DNA of 64,000 bases. Origin: Mobula hypostoma. Its lineage: Eukaryota. The position numbers were made by a program, and so were the translations under genes. The stretch is taken from assembly GCF_963921235.1 (NCBI RefSeq), contig NC_086108.1:16802001-16866000 (forward strand), read 5' to 3'. Below the pieces are notes generated by a model. That model was not told where the DNA came from. It did no database searches and saw only the letters and a program-made list of their open reading frames with translations. Below, one piece after another: positions 3,752 through 46,988 of the stretch (position 1 is its first letter; each line of letters opens with the position of its first letter).

Positions 3752-4990
3752 CACATTTAGATCCTCTCCAGTTCACCTACCAGCCCCGACTAGGAGTTGC
3801 GGATGCCATCGTCTACCTGCAGAACCGTGTCTACGCCCACCTGGACAAGCCAGCGACCACTGTGAGGGTCATGTTTTTTGACTTCTCCACCATCCGCCCT
3901 GCTCTGCTGGGGGAGAAGCTGACAGCGATGCAGGTGGATGCTTCCCTGGTATCATGGATTCTTGATTACCTGACTGGCAGACGACAGTACGTGTGCTTGC
4001 AACACTGCGTGTCCGACAGAGTGATCAGCAGCACTGGGGATCCACAAGGGACTGTCTTGTCACCCTTTCTCTTCACCATTTACACCTCGGACTTCAACTA
4101 CTGCACAGAGTCTTGTCATCTTCAGAAGTTTTCGGATGACTCTGCCGTAGTTGGATGCATCAGCAAGGAAGATAAGGCTGAGTACAGGGCTAAGGTAGGA
4201 AACTTTGTCACATGGTGTGAGCAGAATTATCTGCAGTTAATGTGAAAAAGACTAAGGAGCTGGTGGTAGACCTGAGGAGAGCTAAGGTACCAGTGACTCC
4301 TGTTTCCATCCAGGAGGTCAGTGTGACATGGTGGAGGATTACAAATACCCGGGGATACGAATTGACAATAAACTGGACTGGTCTAAGAACACTGAGGCTG
4401 TCTACAAGAAGGGTCAGAGCTGTCTCTATTTCCTGTGGAGACTGAGGTCCTTCAACATCTGCCGGACGATGCTGAGGATGTTCTAAGAGTCTGTGGTGGC
4501 CAGTGCTATCATGTTTGCTGTTGCGTGCTGGGGCAGCAGGCTGAGGGTAGCAGACACCAACAGAATCAACAAACTTATTCGTAAGGCCAGTGATGTTGTG
4601 GGGATGGAACTGGACTCTCTCACGGTGGTGTCTGAAAAGAGGATGCTGTCTAAGTTGCATGCCATCTTGGACAATGTCTCCCATCCACTACATAATGTAC
4701 TGGGTGGGCACAAGAGTACATTCAGCCAGAGACTCATTCCACCGAGATGCAGCACAGAGCGTCATAGGAAGTCATTCCTGCCTGTGGACCATCAAACTTT
4801 ACAACTCCTCCCGTGGAGGGTCAGACACCCTGAGCCAATAGGCTGGTCCTGACTTATTTCATAATTTACTGGCATAATTTACATATTACTATTTAACTAT
4901 TTATGTTTCTATTACTATTTATTATTTATGGTGCAACTGTAACAAAAACCAATTTCCCCCGGGATCAATAAAGTATGACTATGACTATGA
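3752..4990 (+). mobile_element. Rex1/Babar LINE, 5'-truncated, frameshifted
   Basis: RT motifs DPLQFTYQP, PQGTVLSPFLFTIY, KFSDD; (ACTATG)n tail after AATAAA. Near-identical 3' part at 21397-22083. Confidence 0.9.
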
Positions 4991-5217
4991 CCATATTCAG
5001 TTCACATCTGCAGGCCTCCCCAATCAAAATTGCCCAAAACAGCAACAAAAAGGAAGAGCTACCAGAAACCAGAAACACACCGCAATGTGAACCACAGAAT
5101 CCAATCCACAAATCGTGTCGATCAAACCCTGGCCAAAACCCAGAAATCCAGCACCATCATCAGAAAGCATCATGGGAGAGAGACCATTCAAACGCAGGGA
5201 CCTTCCTTCGGGAGCTG

Positions 5218-21123: not shown

Positions 21124-21396
21124 AAAATTGATCAGGGAAAAAATTATGAAGTACTAAAAGTAAAGAGTGCATGAAGGATTTGTAAAAGACACAAAAACTA
21201 AAGCAATAACTGGAGAAAAAGAAGTGTTTGCTCTAATACCTAATAGGCAGATGTGATTACAGTGGCTAAGGCTGAAAACTCCAAGTCATGTTTCAAAATG
21301 GCAAACAAAGTAAGTTTAGATAAAGATTAAAAAATGAAGAACAGAAAACACCAGTGGAAGTTATATGTAGGCATTCCCTCCTCCCCTAGTTACAGA

Positions 21397-22083
21397 CCCC
21401 TCGGGGGTCAGTGTGGACATGGTGAAGAATTACAAATACCTGGGGATACAAATTGACAATAAACTGGACTGGTCAAAGAACACTGAAGCTGTCTGCAAGA
21501 AGGGTCAGAGCCGTCTCTATTTCCTGAGGAGACTGAGGTCCTTTAACATCTGCCGAACGATGCTGAGGATGTTCTACGAGTCTGTGGTGGCCAGTGCTAT
21601 CATGTTTGCTGTTGTGTGCTGGAGCAGCAGGCTGAGGGTAATAGACACCAACAGAATCAACAAACTCATTCGTAAGGCCAGTGATGTTGTGGGGATGGAA
21701 CTGGACTCTCTGACGGTGGTGTCTGAAAAGAGGATGCTGTCCAAGTTGCATGCCATCTTGGACAATGTCTCCCATCCACTACATAATGTACTGGTTGGGC
21801 ACAGGAGTACATTCAGCCAGAGACTCATTCCACCGAGATGCAACACAGAGCGTCATAGGAAGTCATTCCTGCCTGTGGCCATCAAACTTTACAACTCCTC
21901 CCTTGGAGGGTCAGACACCCTGAGCCAATAGGCTGGTCCTGGACTTATTTCACAATTTACTGGCATAATTTACATATTACTATTTAACTACTTATGGTTT
22001 TATTACTATTTATTATTTATGGTGCAACTGTAACGAAAACCAATTTCCCCCGGGATCAATAAAGTATGACTATGACTATGACT
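21397..22083 (+). mobile_element. Rex1/Babar LINE 3' fragment
   Basis: ORF 21413-21931 (YKYLGIQIDNKLDWS, SRLYFLRRLRSF); (ACTATG)n tail. Confidence 0.9.
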
Positions 22084-22089
22084 AGATAG

Positions 22090-22281
22090 GGGGTGTATGG
22101 GGTGTCAGGGAGGGGTAGCACCTCTGATGGGGGAATATGTTGCGTCCTTTTTAAGGCGGTTAGCCCACCTTTGGGCCTCACCTGGCACTCAGCTCTCACC
22201 TGTGGCTCCTCATAGCTGTTTGCATGCGACAGCGGCCACACCCAGGGCAATGGCTTCGACAAGCCGGCTAAACCAGATGAG
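22090..22281 (+). ncRNA. Putative HDV-like self-cleaving ribozyme at the RTE 5' end, slightly decayed
   Basis: P1 GGGGUGU/ACACCCA, P2 CUCACCUG/CAGAUGAG, P3 GGC/GCC, L3 starting UCCUC, P1.1 CC/GG, P4 UGGCUU/AAGCCG, J4/2 GCUAA (C22268). One mismatch each in P1 and P2. Confidence 0.65.
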
Positions 22282-24058
22282 GGTAGCCAACGGGTCTTAA
22301 ACCCTCGGTGAGATAGGGAGATGTCTATCCCAGCATACGAAGACAGACTCCGGCAGATTGAGCGGATGAGACCCATGGAAGGTCCAACGGTCAAGAAGGC
22401 AATCTCTGCAAACATCGTGGAATGTGTAGAGCACGACAAGGCACAGAAAACATCCTATCTCCAGCTGTCTCGACTCTTGTCTTGCCACTGGATCCAGATG
22501 GGAATTGGGAAGAAAGAGTGAGGCTGATGCTGTGCAACTCTCTCTCACTTAAATCCAAATCAAGTGCGAGTCTCAACACCATCATCATCATCACCCTCAA
22601 CCTTTGAAGACCTGTGGCGATGGGCAAGTGATGAAGCAGTAGGTGTGGATACACTGGGAGCTGTAGTCATGGACCTGCACACAGGCGGCTCAGGTCTAAT
22701 GGTCGTTTTTCACTGACCGAAGCAGCAGTGAAACTCGGCGTCTACCTGGGCCACTGAGCAGCCCTCTTTAGGAACGCACTGCTCACCTCCGTAGCATGAG
22801 GGAGGGGCTAGAAAAGGTGCCCTAAACATTGCCTGCTTCATTATACCCTGGCCAATTTACCGTGGCTGGCGGGGATCCTATCTTGGCGGTCGAACTAACA
22901 CAACATGCCAGGTGATACTGCTCACCATTGGCACTTGGAACATGCGCACGCTATTGGACAACCCTACAGCAAACAGATCAGAGAGAACAGCCTTAGTTGC
23001 CAGAGAGCTTGCAAGATACAACATTGACACAGCAGCCCTGAGTGAGACTCGTCTTGCCAACGTAGGTCAGCTGACTAAAACTGGAGGCGGATACACTTTT
23101 TTCTGGAGCGGTCGCGGCAGCGATGAGCGTCGTGATACTGGAATTGGATTCGCCATCAGGAGTCACCTTGTTCGGAAACTTGCCAGTCTCCACAAGGGTG
23201 TGAACGACCGGCTCATGACACTACAGCTTCCGCTACAGAATGGAGGTCAAGCCATCCTGATCAGCGACTATGCCCCCACAACGACCAACCTGGACGAGAC
23301 AAAGGACAGGTTCTATGAAGAACTAGACACCCTGCTATCAGCAGTGAGCAGCACTAACAAGCTGATCTTGCTCGGCGACTTCAATGCAAGAGTAGGGTGC
23401 GACTCTGCAGCCTGGCAGGGAGTTGTTGGGAGTCATGGAGTGGGCAAATGTAACAGTAACGGCCTACTCTTACTGAAGACCGGTGCAGCACACAACCTCC
23501 TCATCACCAACATAACTTTCTGTCTGCCTACCCATAACAAGACCTCCTGGATGCACCCCCACTCTAAGCATTGGCATCTTATCGACTATGTCATTGTTAG
23601 GAGAAAAGACAGACAGGATGTCAGAGTGACCAAGGCCACGTGTGGTGCTGACTGCTGGACAGATCACAGGCTCATTGTCTCCAAAATGAAGCTCCGCATC
23701 AAACCCAAGAGGGAACCACAAGGAAGCAAGGCTATGAAAAGAATCAATGTGGCAAGGCTGAAGAACCCCAGCATTGCTTCAGCACTGGTTGAAGATTTAG
23801 AAGCCAAGCTTGTTGACTTACACCTTGCAGGCAGCGCTGTGGACGACTGGGATCGCTTCAAGGATGCTGTCCATTCATCTGCACTGAAGATGCTAGAGCT
23901 CTCTACTCGCAAGCAGCATGACTGGTTCGATGAGGATGATGAGGAGATACAGGCTCTACTTGGTGAAATGCACCGTCTTCATCATGCCCATCAGAACGAT
24001 CCATCATCAGCTGCCAAGAAAAATGCCTTTACCAGTGCTCGCAGGATAGTTCAGAATA

Positions 24059-24313
24059 GGAAAGGAAAGGTACGTTGCATCCGGAGTTTCTCCGGTTAGC
24101 AGACGATTTCCCTCCACGCCTCTCTGATGTAGTGGGGAACCACATATTAGGGAAGTTACAGCAGTATTTTGCCATTGGCTTCTGCCAGGTGAGTTTCCAA
24201 AGAGATCACACAGCTTGTAACCCAGCACGGATGGAAAGCGTGCAGGGGAGCCGGCTGGATTCGAACTCAGGACCTTTCGTCCCGAAGTCCGGCACTGATG
24301 CCACTAGGGCAGC
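24059..24313 (-). mobile_element. tRNA-derived SINE (255 bp) inserted in the RTE ORF
   Basis: TSD AGTTCAGAATA at 24048-24058 and 24314-24324; B box GTTCGAATCC on the minus strand; 3' hairpin CCGGAG-AAA-CTCCGG and (CCTTT)n tail. Removal restores the frame RRIVQNKLRKMQDAW. Confidence 0.9.
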
Positions 24314-25383
24314 AGTTCAGAATAAACTGCGTAAAATGCAAGATGCCTGGCTGAGCGCCAAGGCAGATGAAATACAGGGATACGCTGACAGAAACGACTT
24401 GAAACGATTCTATGGAGCCCTTAACACTCTCTACAGACCTCAGTCTCTCGGGAGTTCCCCCCTCCTGAGTATAGATGGTATAATTCTCATTACAGAGAAG
24501 GCTCAGATCCTGCAGAGATGGGCTGAACACTTTGAAGCCATCCTCAACTGACCGCCATCTATTAACGATGAGACGATAGACAGGATTCCTCAGGTCGACA
24601 TCAACAGCGCCATGGATGACCCACCGGTAGTAGCCGAAGTCACGAAAGCTGTCAGCCAGCTATACATTGGCAAAGCCCCGGGGCAGACTCCATACCTGCA
24701 AAGATCTACAAAGCCAGTAGTCCCGTACTTATAGAGAAGCTCACTGAGTTGTTTCAGTCTTTTTGGAAGCCAGGATCCATTCCCCAGGAACTTAAAGATG
24801 CACTCGTCGTACACCTCTACAAAAGGAAGGGCAATCAACAAGTATGCAACATCTACGGAGGAATCTCGCTGCTCTCCATCGTAGGGAAAACCCTTGCAAG
24901 AGTCCTGCTAAATTGTCTGGTCACTCTTCTGGAGCTGGGCCTGCTGCCAGAGTCACAGTGTGGCTTTCGCAAAGTTCGTGGGACTATCGACATGATTTTT
25001 GCCGCGCGCCAACTTAAAAGAGAAGTGTCAGGAGCAGAATCGCAAGCTCTACAGAACTTTTGTTGACCTCACGAAAGCCTTCGACACCGTATGCTGACAA
25101 GGCCTGTGGAGGATCATGTCAAAGTTCAGCTGCCCCGCCAAATTCATTCAGATGGTACGCCAGTTCCATGATAGCTGGATGACCAGAGCGCTGGATGGCG
25201 GAGAATCCTCTAAGGCGTTCCCAGTCACCAATAGTGTCAAACAGGGCTGTGTGCTCGCACCAACACTGTTCAGCATGATGTTTTCTGCCATGCTGAATGA
25301 TGTCTTCTAGGACAGTGATGCTGGAATCAGCCTCAAGTACAGAGTGGATGGGAAGCTCTTCAACCTGAGGAGATTTCAAGCTA

Positions 25384-26227
25384 CAGGTGCACATTCCTTT
25401 ATCTGAAATTCTGAAATCCAAAAAGCTCCGAAAACTAAGTTTTTTTCGCCAACAGCTGATGTCACTCAGGTGTGACGTGACAGCACTAGCAGAGGCCGCC
25501 AGACGTCAGTTGTGGCTCAGCGCTCGTACTGGTTACACGTGCATTTACCGTTCACTGATATTTTGTGTTCACTGTTGACTTTGTGTTTAATTTCACTGTG
25601 AAAATACCAAAAAGAGCTGCAGATACCCCTATGGGTAACAATAAGAAAAAGAGAAGGAAGCATCTATCATTATCAATAATGCAGAAAGTGGAGTTATTGC
25701 AGAAGCTTGATCGTGGTGCGTCTGTGTGGCATCTTACTGAAGAAAATAGTGTCGGAACTACCACTGTATACGATTTAAATAAACAGAAAGACAAGTTACT
25801 GAAGTTTTATGGTGACAGTGACATTCTACATTTATTCCAATAAGTCATTTACCATGTGTTTGATTCGGTTCGTTTGAAGCTGTATATTTTTATGTTTTAT
25901 TGAATGCTTTTGATGGAAATAATATTTTCTGTCATTATTCCCTAAACAATACAGTATAACAACTATTTACATTGCATTTACATTGTATTAGGTATTATAA
26001 GTAATCTAGAGATGATTTAAAGTATACAGGAGGATGTGCATAGGTTTGGTGCACTGTCGGCTCCTAAAGTCCACCACACTGAGACAGGTTAAATAAGGGA
26101 CTTGAACCTACGTGTTTTTTGGTATCGGGTGTGGCGGGGGGGGGGGGGGCAAGTCTGAAATCTGAAAAATTCTGAATTCCAAAATGCAACTGGCCCCGAG
26201 GATTTCAGATAAGGGATTGTGGACCTG
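25384..26227 (+). mobile_element. Non-autonomous Tigger/pogo element (844 bp) with transposase N-terminal HTH remnant
   Basis: 26-bp TIRs with 3 mismatches; TA TSD; peptide KRKHLSLSIMQKVELLQKLDRG..VGTTTVYDL (CENP-B-like HTH). Removal restores the RTE frame RRFQAITKVKE. Confidence 0.92.
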
Positions 26228-27323
26228 TATTACCAAAGTGAAAGAGAGCATTCTGAGAGACTTCCTCTTTGCCGATGACTGTGCCCTGTATGCTGGCTCG
26301 GAGCCAGAGATGCAAGTCCATATGGACAAATTCTCCACGGCTTGTGCTAACTGGACTCACCACCAACATCAAAAAGACCGAAGTCATGCACCAGCCTGCC
26401 CCTCATACACCGCACACAGAACCGAAAATCACAATCAAAGGACAGAAACTACAGGCAGTTGACCAGTTTACTTACCTTGGCAGCACCCTCTCCCGAGCAG
26501 TGACTATTGATACAGAAGTTAACTGCAGAATAGCAAAGGCAAAGACTGCGTTCCACTGTATGGGAACGCCAAGGAATTAGTCCAGTAACAAAACTGAAGG
26601 TCTATAGAGGTGTGGTACTCACTACCTTCCTGTATGCCTGTGAAACGTGGACTGTGTATGGAAGGCATGCAAGACAGCTCAACCATTTCCACATGACTTG
26701 TTTTCGCAGAATATCAGGCATCAGATGGCAAGACAAAGTACCAGACATTGAAGTTCTCTCTAGAGCAAGTCTACCATCAGTCTACACACTGCTGATGAGA
26801 GCAGAGACCCGGTGGGCAGGTCATGTCATCCGCATGCCTGATGAGCGCACACCCAAGCAGCTTTTTTTTGGGGAAAACTCTGCTGGAAGACGCTCGCATG
26901 GAGGGCAGAAGAAACGTTACAAAGACACACTAAAAGCCTCCCTGAAGCCACTTGACATAGACACTACCACCTGGGAAACGCTGGCACAAAATTGCCCTAC
27001 CTGGTGCGGTCTTATCCATAAGGGCTGTCAAGCTTACAAAGCAAGGCGCATTGCTGAAACTCAACATAAGCATGAGCTGCGCAAGTCCAGACCCACCAGT
27101 GTAGCAACTGCAGTGCTTACACATGACTGCCCAACATGTGCCAGGACATTTCGTGCACGAATTGACCTGACCAGTCATCTTCAGATACACTGCATCCAGT
27201 CTCAAAAGTGACTAATGATGTCGAGGTCTTCATCGATGACAACGATGGATGAACAACAGTTACAGATAAGTATCATCCAAAGCTTTAATCAAGAATTAAC
27301 AAAATTCTAGCAACAAAACGTAA

Positions 27324-45070: not shown

Positions 45071-45645
45071 TGGGGTGTATGGGGTGTCAAGGAGGGGTAG
45101 CACCTCTGGTGGGGGAACATGCCGCGTCCTTTTCAGGGCGGTTAGTCCACCTTTGGTCCCCACCTGGCACTCAGCTCTCACCTGTGGCTCCCCGTAGCTG
45201 TTTGCATGCGACAGCGGCCACACCCCGGGCAACGGCTTCGACAAGCCGGCTAAACCGGGTGAGGGTAGCCGACGGGTCTCAAACCCTCGGTGTGATAGGG
45301 AGTTGTCTATCCCAGCATGTGAAGACAGACTCCGGCGGATTGAGCGGACGAGACCTATGGAAGGTCCAACGGTCAAGAAGGCGGTCTCTGCAAGCGTCGT
45401 GGAACATGTAGAGCAGTACAAGACACAGAAGACGTCCTGGTCAACCACTGCGCCTAGTCCCATCTCCAGCTGTCTAGACTCTGTCTTGCCACTGGATCCA
45501 GATGGGAATTGGGAAGAGAGAGTGAGGCTGACGCTGCGCAACTCTCCCTCACTTAAATCCAAATCACGCGCTAGTCTCGACACCATCATACTGGTGTCGA
45601 GGTCCTCATCGATGTCAATGATGGACGAACAACACGCACAACAAC
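45071..45645 (+). mobile_element. Bipartite non-autonomous RTE derivative (RTE 5' UTR fused to RTE 3' tip)
   Basis: 45072-45589 aligns with 22090-22585; 45595-45633 aligns with 27219-27257; TSD ACTTTTAATAA at 45060-45070 and 45646-45656. Confidence 0.9.
45072..45263 (+). ncRNA. Putative HDV-like self-cleaving ribozyme, all helices intact
   Basis: P1 45072-78/45220-26, P2 45177-84/45256-63, P3 45186-88/45217-19, P1.1 C45190-91/G45227-28, P4 45233-38/45243-48, J4/2 GCUAA with C45250. Confidence 0.75.
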
Positions 45646-46988
45646 ACTTTTAATAAATAAGTTTGATAATAAATACGTTAAGACTTTATTCCCTGGAGCA
45701 TAGGAGATCTGATAGAGGTATACAAAATTCAGGCAGACCTTTTCCACTGATGTTGAGTGAGATTAGAGGTCATAAGTTAAGTGTAAATAGATAGGAGGGG
45801 TGTAGAGGGCTATGGTCCAAGGCAAAAAAACAATTCCAGTTGCAGTTAGAGGTAGAATCTGCTGCATGTCAACTTTGGCAGGTTTTGTAGGCCATTACTT
45901 CCGACAAAGTAAAACCTAATTATTATGAATGGCTGTAATGCTTCACTTCCAGATGAGCTCAACACCTTTTATGCCATCTATAATTCTGATGACAACACAA
46001 CTATTGTCACAACAGATCGAAGGTTGAGCAGTAACACCTTGTACTTAATGTCAGCAAGACCAAGGAATTATTGTGGACTTCAGGGGAGGGAAATCGAGGG
46101 ACTACACACCAGCCTCATTAATAAATCAGTAAGTGGAAATGGTGAGCAGTTTCAAGTTCCTAGGTGTCAATATTTCTGAGGATCCATCCTGGCCCCAACA
46201 TATTGATGAATTACAAACAAGAGAAAATCTGCAGATGCTGGAAATCCAAGCGACACACACAAAATGCTGGACGACTCAGCAGGCCAGGCAGCAGCTATGG
46301 AAAAAAGTACAGTCATACAGTCAACATTTTGGCCCAAGACCCTTCAGCAGGACTGGAGCAAAAAGCTGAGGAGTAGATTTAAAAGGTGGGAAGAGGGGAG
46401 ACAGAAACACAAGGTGATAGGTAAAACCTGAAGGGGGAGGGATGAAGTAAAGAGCTGGGAAGTTGGTTGATAAAAGAGATACAGGACAGAAATGGGAGTC
46501 TGATAGAAGTGGATAGAAGGCCCTAGAAGAAAGGGGGGTCTACCCAGATGGAATATAACCAGAATCAGGTTTATTATTACCAGCATTGTTAACTTAGTAG
46601 CAGCAGTTCAATGCATAATATAGAATTTTTAAAAAGTAAATCAATTACAGTATATGTATATTGAATAATTAAAAATTGTGCAAAAACATAAATATATTAA
46701 AAAAGTGAGGCAGTGTTCATGGGTTCAATGTCCATTTAGGAATCAGATGGCAGAGGGGAAAAACCTGTTCCTGAATGGCTGAGTGTGTGCCTTCAGGCTT
46801 CTGTACCTCCTACGTGATGGTAACAGTGAGAAAAGGGAATGCCCTGGGTGCCAGGGGTCCTTAATAATGGACGCTGCCTTTCTGAAACACCGTTCCTTGA
46901 AGATGTCCTGGGTACTTTGTAGACTAGTACTCAAGATGGAGCCAACTAAATTTATGACCCTCTGCAGCTTCTTTTGGTCCTGTGCAGT

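Follow-up and report, generated by a model that had tools for sequence, protein, structure and literature searches.

What fixes the first base of a LINE whose copies sit in mutually unrelated flanking DNA? The question is raised by a 64,000-nucleotide stretch of Mobula hypostoma contig NC_086108.1 (the window), in which a dead, full-length RTE-type LINE spans 22090–27257 and carries an HDV-like ribozyme sequence at its 5′ end (22090–22281), and in which a second copy of the same head begins at 45072. All features below lie on the forward strand of the window. The LINE is bounded by an 11-bp target-site duplication (TSD). Its right copy, AGTTACAGATA (27258–27268), abuts the 3′ end at 27257, and its left copy is split by a nested, 5′-truncated LINE (21397–22083) that belongs to a different family and has a (GACTAT)n tail; this insertion displaced the first nine bases, AGTTACAGA (21388–21396), and left AGATA (22084–22088) as the only left-TSD piece adjoining the element. 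Since TSD sequence is found on both sides, on the left across the nested LINE, the boundary is firm. The nested LINE itself has a 3-base duplication, AGA, and a near-identical partner at 4325–4996. A first-pass annotation of this DNA had started the element directly after an AGATA remnant of the TSD; the remnant is genuine, but +1 is predicted at 22090 and not at 22089, and G22089 is an extra base at position −1, outside both TSD and P1.

Behind the ribozyme sequence, the rest of the 5′ UTR (22282–22910) leads into a single endonuclease and reverse-transcriptase (RT) ORF (22911–27211, start approximate), and 27212–27268 hold the 3′ UTR, which ends in GAACAAC with its last base at 27257, followed by the right TSD. 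One ORF with an AP endonuclease and then RT, a TSD and a short-repeat AAC tail make up the architecture of the RTE clade; on the strength of this architecture we take the element to be an RTE. The AP endonuclease domain PF03372 is detected in the ORF, and an intact endonuclease-RT relative of 1056 aa, with PF03372 and PF00078, is colinear with it. Among named proteins the closest comes from the shark Mustelus asterias (75–82%), which points to a cartilaginous fish as the probable host. The frame is disrupted by stops, frameshifts and two nested insertions (24059–24313 and 25384–26227), and this copy is an ordinary dead insertion, a decayed member of a ribozyme-headed RTE family. The shorter insertion has an 11-bp direct repeat on both sides. 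The longer one, in the RT region, is TA-flanked with inverted ends, has a further piece at 54–545, and is presumably of the Tc1/mariner type.

With the P1 register set from the GG-GCAA and C-U-A-A core, the first 192 bases can be laid out as follows. The P1 5′ strand (22090–22096), with the predicted cut 5′ of G22090, pairs with 22238–22244 over 7 bp. J1/2 measures 98 nt (22097–22194) and is closed by a 10-bp helix (22100–22109 with 22181–22190). The P2 5′ strand (22195–22203) and the P3 5′ strand (22204–22206) lead to a 7-nt L3 (22207–22213) that contains the CC of P1.1 and opens with UCCUC at 22207–22211, as had been noted before. L3 is separated from the P3 3′ strand by a 21-nt insertion (22214–22234), which consists of an A, a hairpin with a 6-bp stem and a 7-nt loop (22215–22233), and a G. 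The P3 3′ strand (22235–22237), the P1 3′ strand (22238–22244) and the GG of P1.1 (22245–22246) follow, then the P4 hairpin (22251–22266), and finally J4/2 with the predicted catalytic C at 22268 and the P2 3′ strand at 22272–22281 (22268–22281 together, with one bulged C). Folding energies are unremarkable against shuffles (z from −0.2 to −1.7, with −0.9 for the inserted hairpin and only −1.5 for the J1/2 closing helix), and nested folding favours an extended P3 of 6–7 bp that uses part of the P1 3′ strand.

Decay is evident in the copy at 22090. Compared with the 45072 copy it carries 16 differences over 192 positions, six of them in the core, and it matches neither our strict nor our relaxed descriptor. 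The first-pass annotation had seen two pair-breaking differences and had put the end of the fold at 22281, both correctly: P1 retains 6 of 7 pairs, G1 standing opposite A at 22244, and P2 has a C × A mismatch at 22277. It had also suspected inactivity, and this suspicion gains from a sixth core difference that it overlooked, G25A in L3 (22212), by which the L3 combination of U20 and G25 is lost here; it is kept in the 45072 copy and in two related loci, L003 and L020. In the Nasonia R2 ribozyme G25A is reported to abolish cleavage, and in the HDV ribozyme to do so incompletely (PMC3774820); in genomic HDV, G at −1 is described as the slowest context, more than 25-fold slower than U (PMC1874588). 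Because of the P1 and P2 mismatches, G25A and the G at −1, the 22090 copy is probably inactive, a decayed relic that would no longer cleave.

The copy at 45072 is a different kind of object. It is an internally deleted short derivative (45072–45646), 518 nt of 5′ UTR fused to about 46 nt of 3′ end, with its own 11-bp TSD and a T at −1; its ribozyme (45072–45263) looks intact, with P1 at 7/7 pairs. Parental ends joined, an own TSD and multiple copies are the marks of bipartite non-autonomous LINEs, and all three are found here. In both window copies (2/2) the 11-bp TSD stops one base short of +1. The two had been described as independent insertions with the same, cleavage-defined 5′ end: the boundary is indeed shared, but the 45072 copy is not full length, and that cleavage defined the termini is something we infer. 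Summed contig depth just behind the internal junction, which is not to be equated with copy number, reaches 136,000–498,000 in three of four sequencing runs and 33 in the fourth, hence the derivative is an abundant family limited to some lineages. At 45589–45592 the junction is nearly absent in the fourth run, where contigs run on into the full-length UTR.

Is the shared boundary a property of the family or of two copies? Contigs from 4 of 24 public runs, including X1, X5, X10 and X14, were compared with the 45072 copy. In 4/4 runs, summed depth rises from 1–55 upstream to 1,200–146,000 in the bin holding +1. Loose 5′ ends with mutually unrelated flanks (flank agreement 0.36–0.44) accumulate at 45071 in 84 contigs of X1 and 90 contigs of X10, and at 45075 in 30 contigs of X14; for X5, no such row is found among those listed. 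Unrelated flanks and the depth step together imply that copies reach upstream no further than about a base. The first-pass annotation had named full-length copies extending upstream of the cut as evidence that would count against it, and this contig comparison contains none beyond about one base. What it had called the exact 5′ end was one base off, but an HDV-like fold does lie at the boundary, as the diverse flanks in four runs and the double changes described below indicate. Its remaining two claims concerned differences that keep pairing. In P4, the C-G to U·G change at 22251 is as described, but it is a common CpG-type change (9–28% of depth) and carries no weight as structural evidence. 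In P2, a supposed U-G to U-A change at 22275, with CpG decay as the other explanation, had the direction reversed: A holds 99.6–99.9% of summed contig depth at this position in 4/4 runs, so that U-A is the family majority and the 45072 copy is the changed one. This difference reflects neither CpG decay in the 22090 copy nor compensation, and like the P4 change it says nothing about structure.

A second subfamily appears in the same comparison: its loose-end consensus (agreement 0.64–0.73) has G1·U37, and in P4 a G-C pair is exchanged for C-G. Its different J1/2 and P4 (window 45148–45228) are seen at loose ends in three runs, with 60–247 contigs per row.

The base at −1 deserves separate consideration. 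Among the 24 of 1451 loose-end rows listed, the best supported includes T at −1 and does not start at +1, and T at −1 seems to be common among family copies; the four sequences that share the L3 insertion have G, T, G and C at this position. A T at −1 fits two accounts: a base added without template once the RNA has been cut, or uncleaved transcripts that start one base upstream of +1. For R2, junctions with a 5′-end cut are reported to carry untemplated bases (PMC3774820). The second possibility belongs to a broader alternative, namely that the head is a ribozyme by descent that was silenced by the L3 insertion, that an internal promoter sets the 5′ end, and that a role in translation or protein binding is what maintains the structure. 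Both window copies (2/2) have a single extra base at −1, where T is apparently common, and this speaks for the alternative. A G at −1 could be a copied cap, which would favour it too. The alternative also draws on L1Tc, where promoter and ribozyme share the same 77 nt (PMC3383444), and on the published descriptor, in which L3 is fixed at 7 nt (PMC4870747).

Related elements bear on this alternative and on the fold itself. As relatives we used the best 80 of at least 454 confirmed metagenomic loci, 56 of them with at least 600 nt upstream of the ORF. Ordinary ribozymes with a 7-nt L3 are located upstream of the ORF in related RTE loci: the strict descriptor gave 6/80 matches in sense and 0/80 in antisense orientation, and further cores were recovered by motif and covariance-model searches. 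One strict match, L027, was set aside as spurious. L003 and L020 (2/80 loci) carry the same L3 insertion as the window copies and form with them the insertion-type set (n = 4, two of them closely related). Here L3 plus insert measures 26–28 nt in 4/4, and the three bases after the 7-nt L3 are unpaired with P3, so that in none of the four does an L3 of 7–8 nt run straight into the P3 3′ strand. Because the insertion breaks this hallmark, the family is a variant and not a canonical HDV-like member.

Apart from the insertion, the core of the four is well preserved. No change affects U20, P1.1, P3 or the catalytic C in any of the four, G25 is retained in 3/4, and a C-U-A-A of the CNRA J4/2 type with the predicted catalytic C is present in 4/4. 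Overall, 95% of cells pair. Double changes occur in four pairs, one in P2 and three of the six in P4, a level reached in 1/500 shuffles (slid controls gave 0–1); in addition, P1 has 7/7 pairs in L003 and L020, with a double change at pair 2 in the former and at pair 1 in the latter. The first-pass annotation had made P1, P1.1 and P2 pairing of the family the touchstone of its proposal, and relatives retain P1 and P2 through double changes and P1.1 as complementary in 4/4. P3 (3 bp) and P1.1 (2 bp), complementary throughout, are invariant, so the nested pseudoknot that they form is not proven by covariation. The inserted stem is paired in every cell and has a variable loop, but with 5/6 of its pairs invariant and a double change in 0/6 it falls short of proving the hairpin. 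None of the six covariance-model matches outside the training set has the insert, and L006 (13–87) has a homologous core, bulged P2 included, with a 7-nt L3 from which the insert is cleanly missing. Taken at family level, sequence comparison confirms that the LINE opens with an HDV-like ribozyme sequence (22090–22281).

Two side observations on the relatives may be recorded. In five loci with a canonical L3 (L032, L038, L045, L052 and L066), T precedes the first candidate +1 in 5/5; A or C precedes it in L018 and L061, and five other hand-picked loci had no P1 candidate. The head of a close RTE relative, L004 (~350–450), resembles a twister ribozyme more than an HDV-like one, although no Rfam model matches it.

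The conservation described above weighs against a silenced ribozyme: three lineages with diverged P4 and J1/2 still have the catalytic C, U20, G25 and P1.1, and the pairing of P1 to the first seven bases covaries while the −1 base differs (G, T, G, C). We consider silencing unlikely, yet of the alternatives it is the one to be taken most seriously. A further alternative would keep cleavage and change the fold or the site, with the second GGGGUGU (22099) serving as P1 or the insert forming part of a rearranged P3. Two identical candidate strands do occur in both window copies, and the extended P3 of nested folds does compete. However, the second GGGGUGU is sequestered by the J1/2 closing helix (pair probability 0.98 and 0.73) and is unduplicated in L003 and L020, copies begin at the first strand, and the L006 core shows a clean deletion of the insert, all of which makes such a rearrangement improbable. 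As a cut site, the second GGGGUGU was rejected for the helix that holds it and for the starting point of the copies.

Could a GC-rich 5′ UTR resemble a ribozyme by chance? An initial loose descriptor matched 12 times on each strand, almost always by chance, and a stricter one replaced it. The strict version matches once in the 64-kb window, at the 45072 copy. Its nulls are one match in 40 shuffled 64-kb strands and 0/3000 local shuffles of that copy, and they are lenient because the descriptor was written after inspection of the sequence. In GC-rich DNA false matches do occur: pattern scans of viral and prokaryotic sequences gave 242 loci, of which 11 passed the strict descriptor and none had the family core. 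A search of viral contigs for an RTE relative found none. Rfam searches of the window and of 20 loci out of the 80 gave no match at gathering score, and by E-value there were two matches only, both chance; this is a weak test, as those 20 loci, canonical-L3 examples included, went without a match as well. The failure of the 22090 copy on both descriptors, the weak folding z-scores and the missing Rfam match would suit chance resemblance. The local shuffles, the paired changes in relatives and the ribozymes at the same position in other RTE loci largely refute it, and we give it hardly any credence.

We therefore return to an HDV-like head and ask how it is distributed. The endonuclease tree has 13 hand-picked rows, and the group tested on it was chosen after viewing an 85-row quick tree. 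On it the window element groups with L003 and with the canonical L001 and L004 (99/99), and L020 falls among three canonical elements (98/98). The three lineages with the insertion do not form a clade, and forcing them together is rejected (p-AU 2e-67). The 5′ UTR downstream of the head (about 22455–22900) matches 56/79 related loci at ~66–88% identity, and the head differs among loci. The simplest reading of the patchy spread of the insertion, these data suggest, is exchange of 5′ modules; the insert may instead have been lost repeatedly, or the L020 contig may be chimeric. The 22455–22900 segment is possibly a separate structured element, with a far wider spread than the ribozyme head.

The reading that we prefer, and to which we attach fairly high confidence as a whole, runs as follows. 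Read-through from an upstream host promoter would make the family RNA. Its first 192 bases would adopt the double pseudoknot of HDV-like ribozymes and cleave the RNA 5′ of G+1, and every retrotransposition template would then start at the same base regardless of the sequence upstream. Reverse transcription would yield insertions starting at +1, often plus one untemplated base. The 21-nt L3 insertion, which replaces the last L3 base of the HDV ribozyme, would be tolerated as a peripheral hairpin. A short derivative with the ribozyme and the 3′ end would have spread on the same machinery, and the 22090 copy would be a relic. The layout of the sequence, the TSDs, the common boundary, conservation and covariation are observed; cleavage, read-through transcription, untemplated addition and the inactivity of the 22090 copy we infer. 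That the family head works like an HDV-like 5′ processing ribozyme is, on its own, a prediction that we likewise consider probable. A bolder proposal is more doubtful, though worth stating: the L3-hairpin forms of animal RTE elements may constitute an active HDV-like subclass, invisible to the standard descriptor, exchangeable between RTE lineages as a 5′ module and re-armed with every insertion by an untemplated U at −1, the base that allows the fastest cleavage.

Should the insertion form prove to cleave, an entire hairpin can be accommodated in L3 of the HDV fold, a natural site for the addition of a domain, and genome searches with a fixed 7-nt L3 would have under-counted such ribozymes, a high-copy vertebrate family among them. 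The published descriptor has L3 fixed at 7 nt, J1/2 of about 50 and a CNRA J4/2 (PMC4870747), and with that L3 and J1/2 it cannot find the window family. Patchy ribozyme types over the RTE tree also make the exchange of 5′ processing modules directly testable; such ribozymes have been called modular (PMC7761336).

The mechanism is already known, and the novelty lies in the L3 insertion and in how patchily it is spread. In the literature searched we found no L3-hairpin variant and no shark example, although Ruminski 2011, Webb 2009, and Webb and Luptak 2011 may hold one, and the available text of PMC9901934 and PMC10879173 makes no mention of L3 insertions. The closest known systems, as far as the available text of the cited papers describes them, are the 5′ HDV-like ribozymes of RTE elements (PMC6765202, PMC7936874 and PMC5786205, all citing Ruminski 2011), which the window family resembles in topology, position at the first base, element clade and long J1/2, and from which it differs by the 21-nt hairpin insertion after L3 and by being a high-copy family, probably of a cartilaginous fish. 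The R2 ribozyme (PMC3774820) shares the HDV-like fold and the large J1/2; there too, a cut at the junction accompanies untemplated 5′-junction bases, and dead copies lose the L3 G. In contrast, R2 is site-specific in 28S rDNA, and in many R2s the target supplies the P1 5′ strand, whereas P1 of the window family is element-encoded and its flanks are unrelated. The twister T-variants at the 5′ end of Perere-3, also of the RTE clade, likewise place the cut site beside the TSD, but they are a different ribozyme class, and their own P1 uses target sequence (PMC8501958). Finally, bipartite derivatives of ribozyme-bearing LINEs have been described (PMC3414825, PMC4035085, PMC5786205): like R2 SIDEs, NARTc and bipartite non-autonomous RTEs, the 45072 copy joins a ribozyme 5′ end to a parental 3′ end, and it differs from them not in kind but in retaining 518 nt of 5′ UTR.
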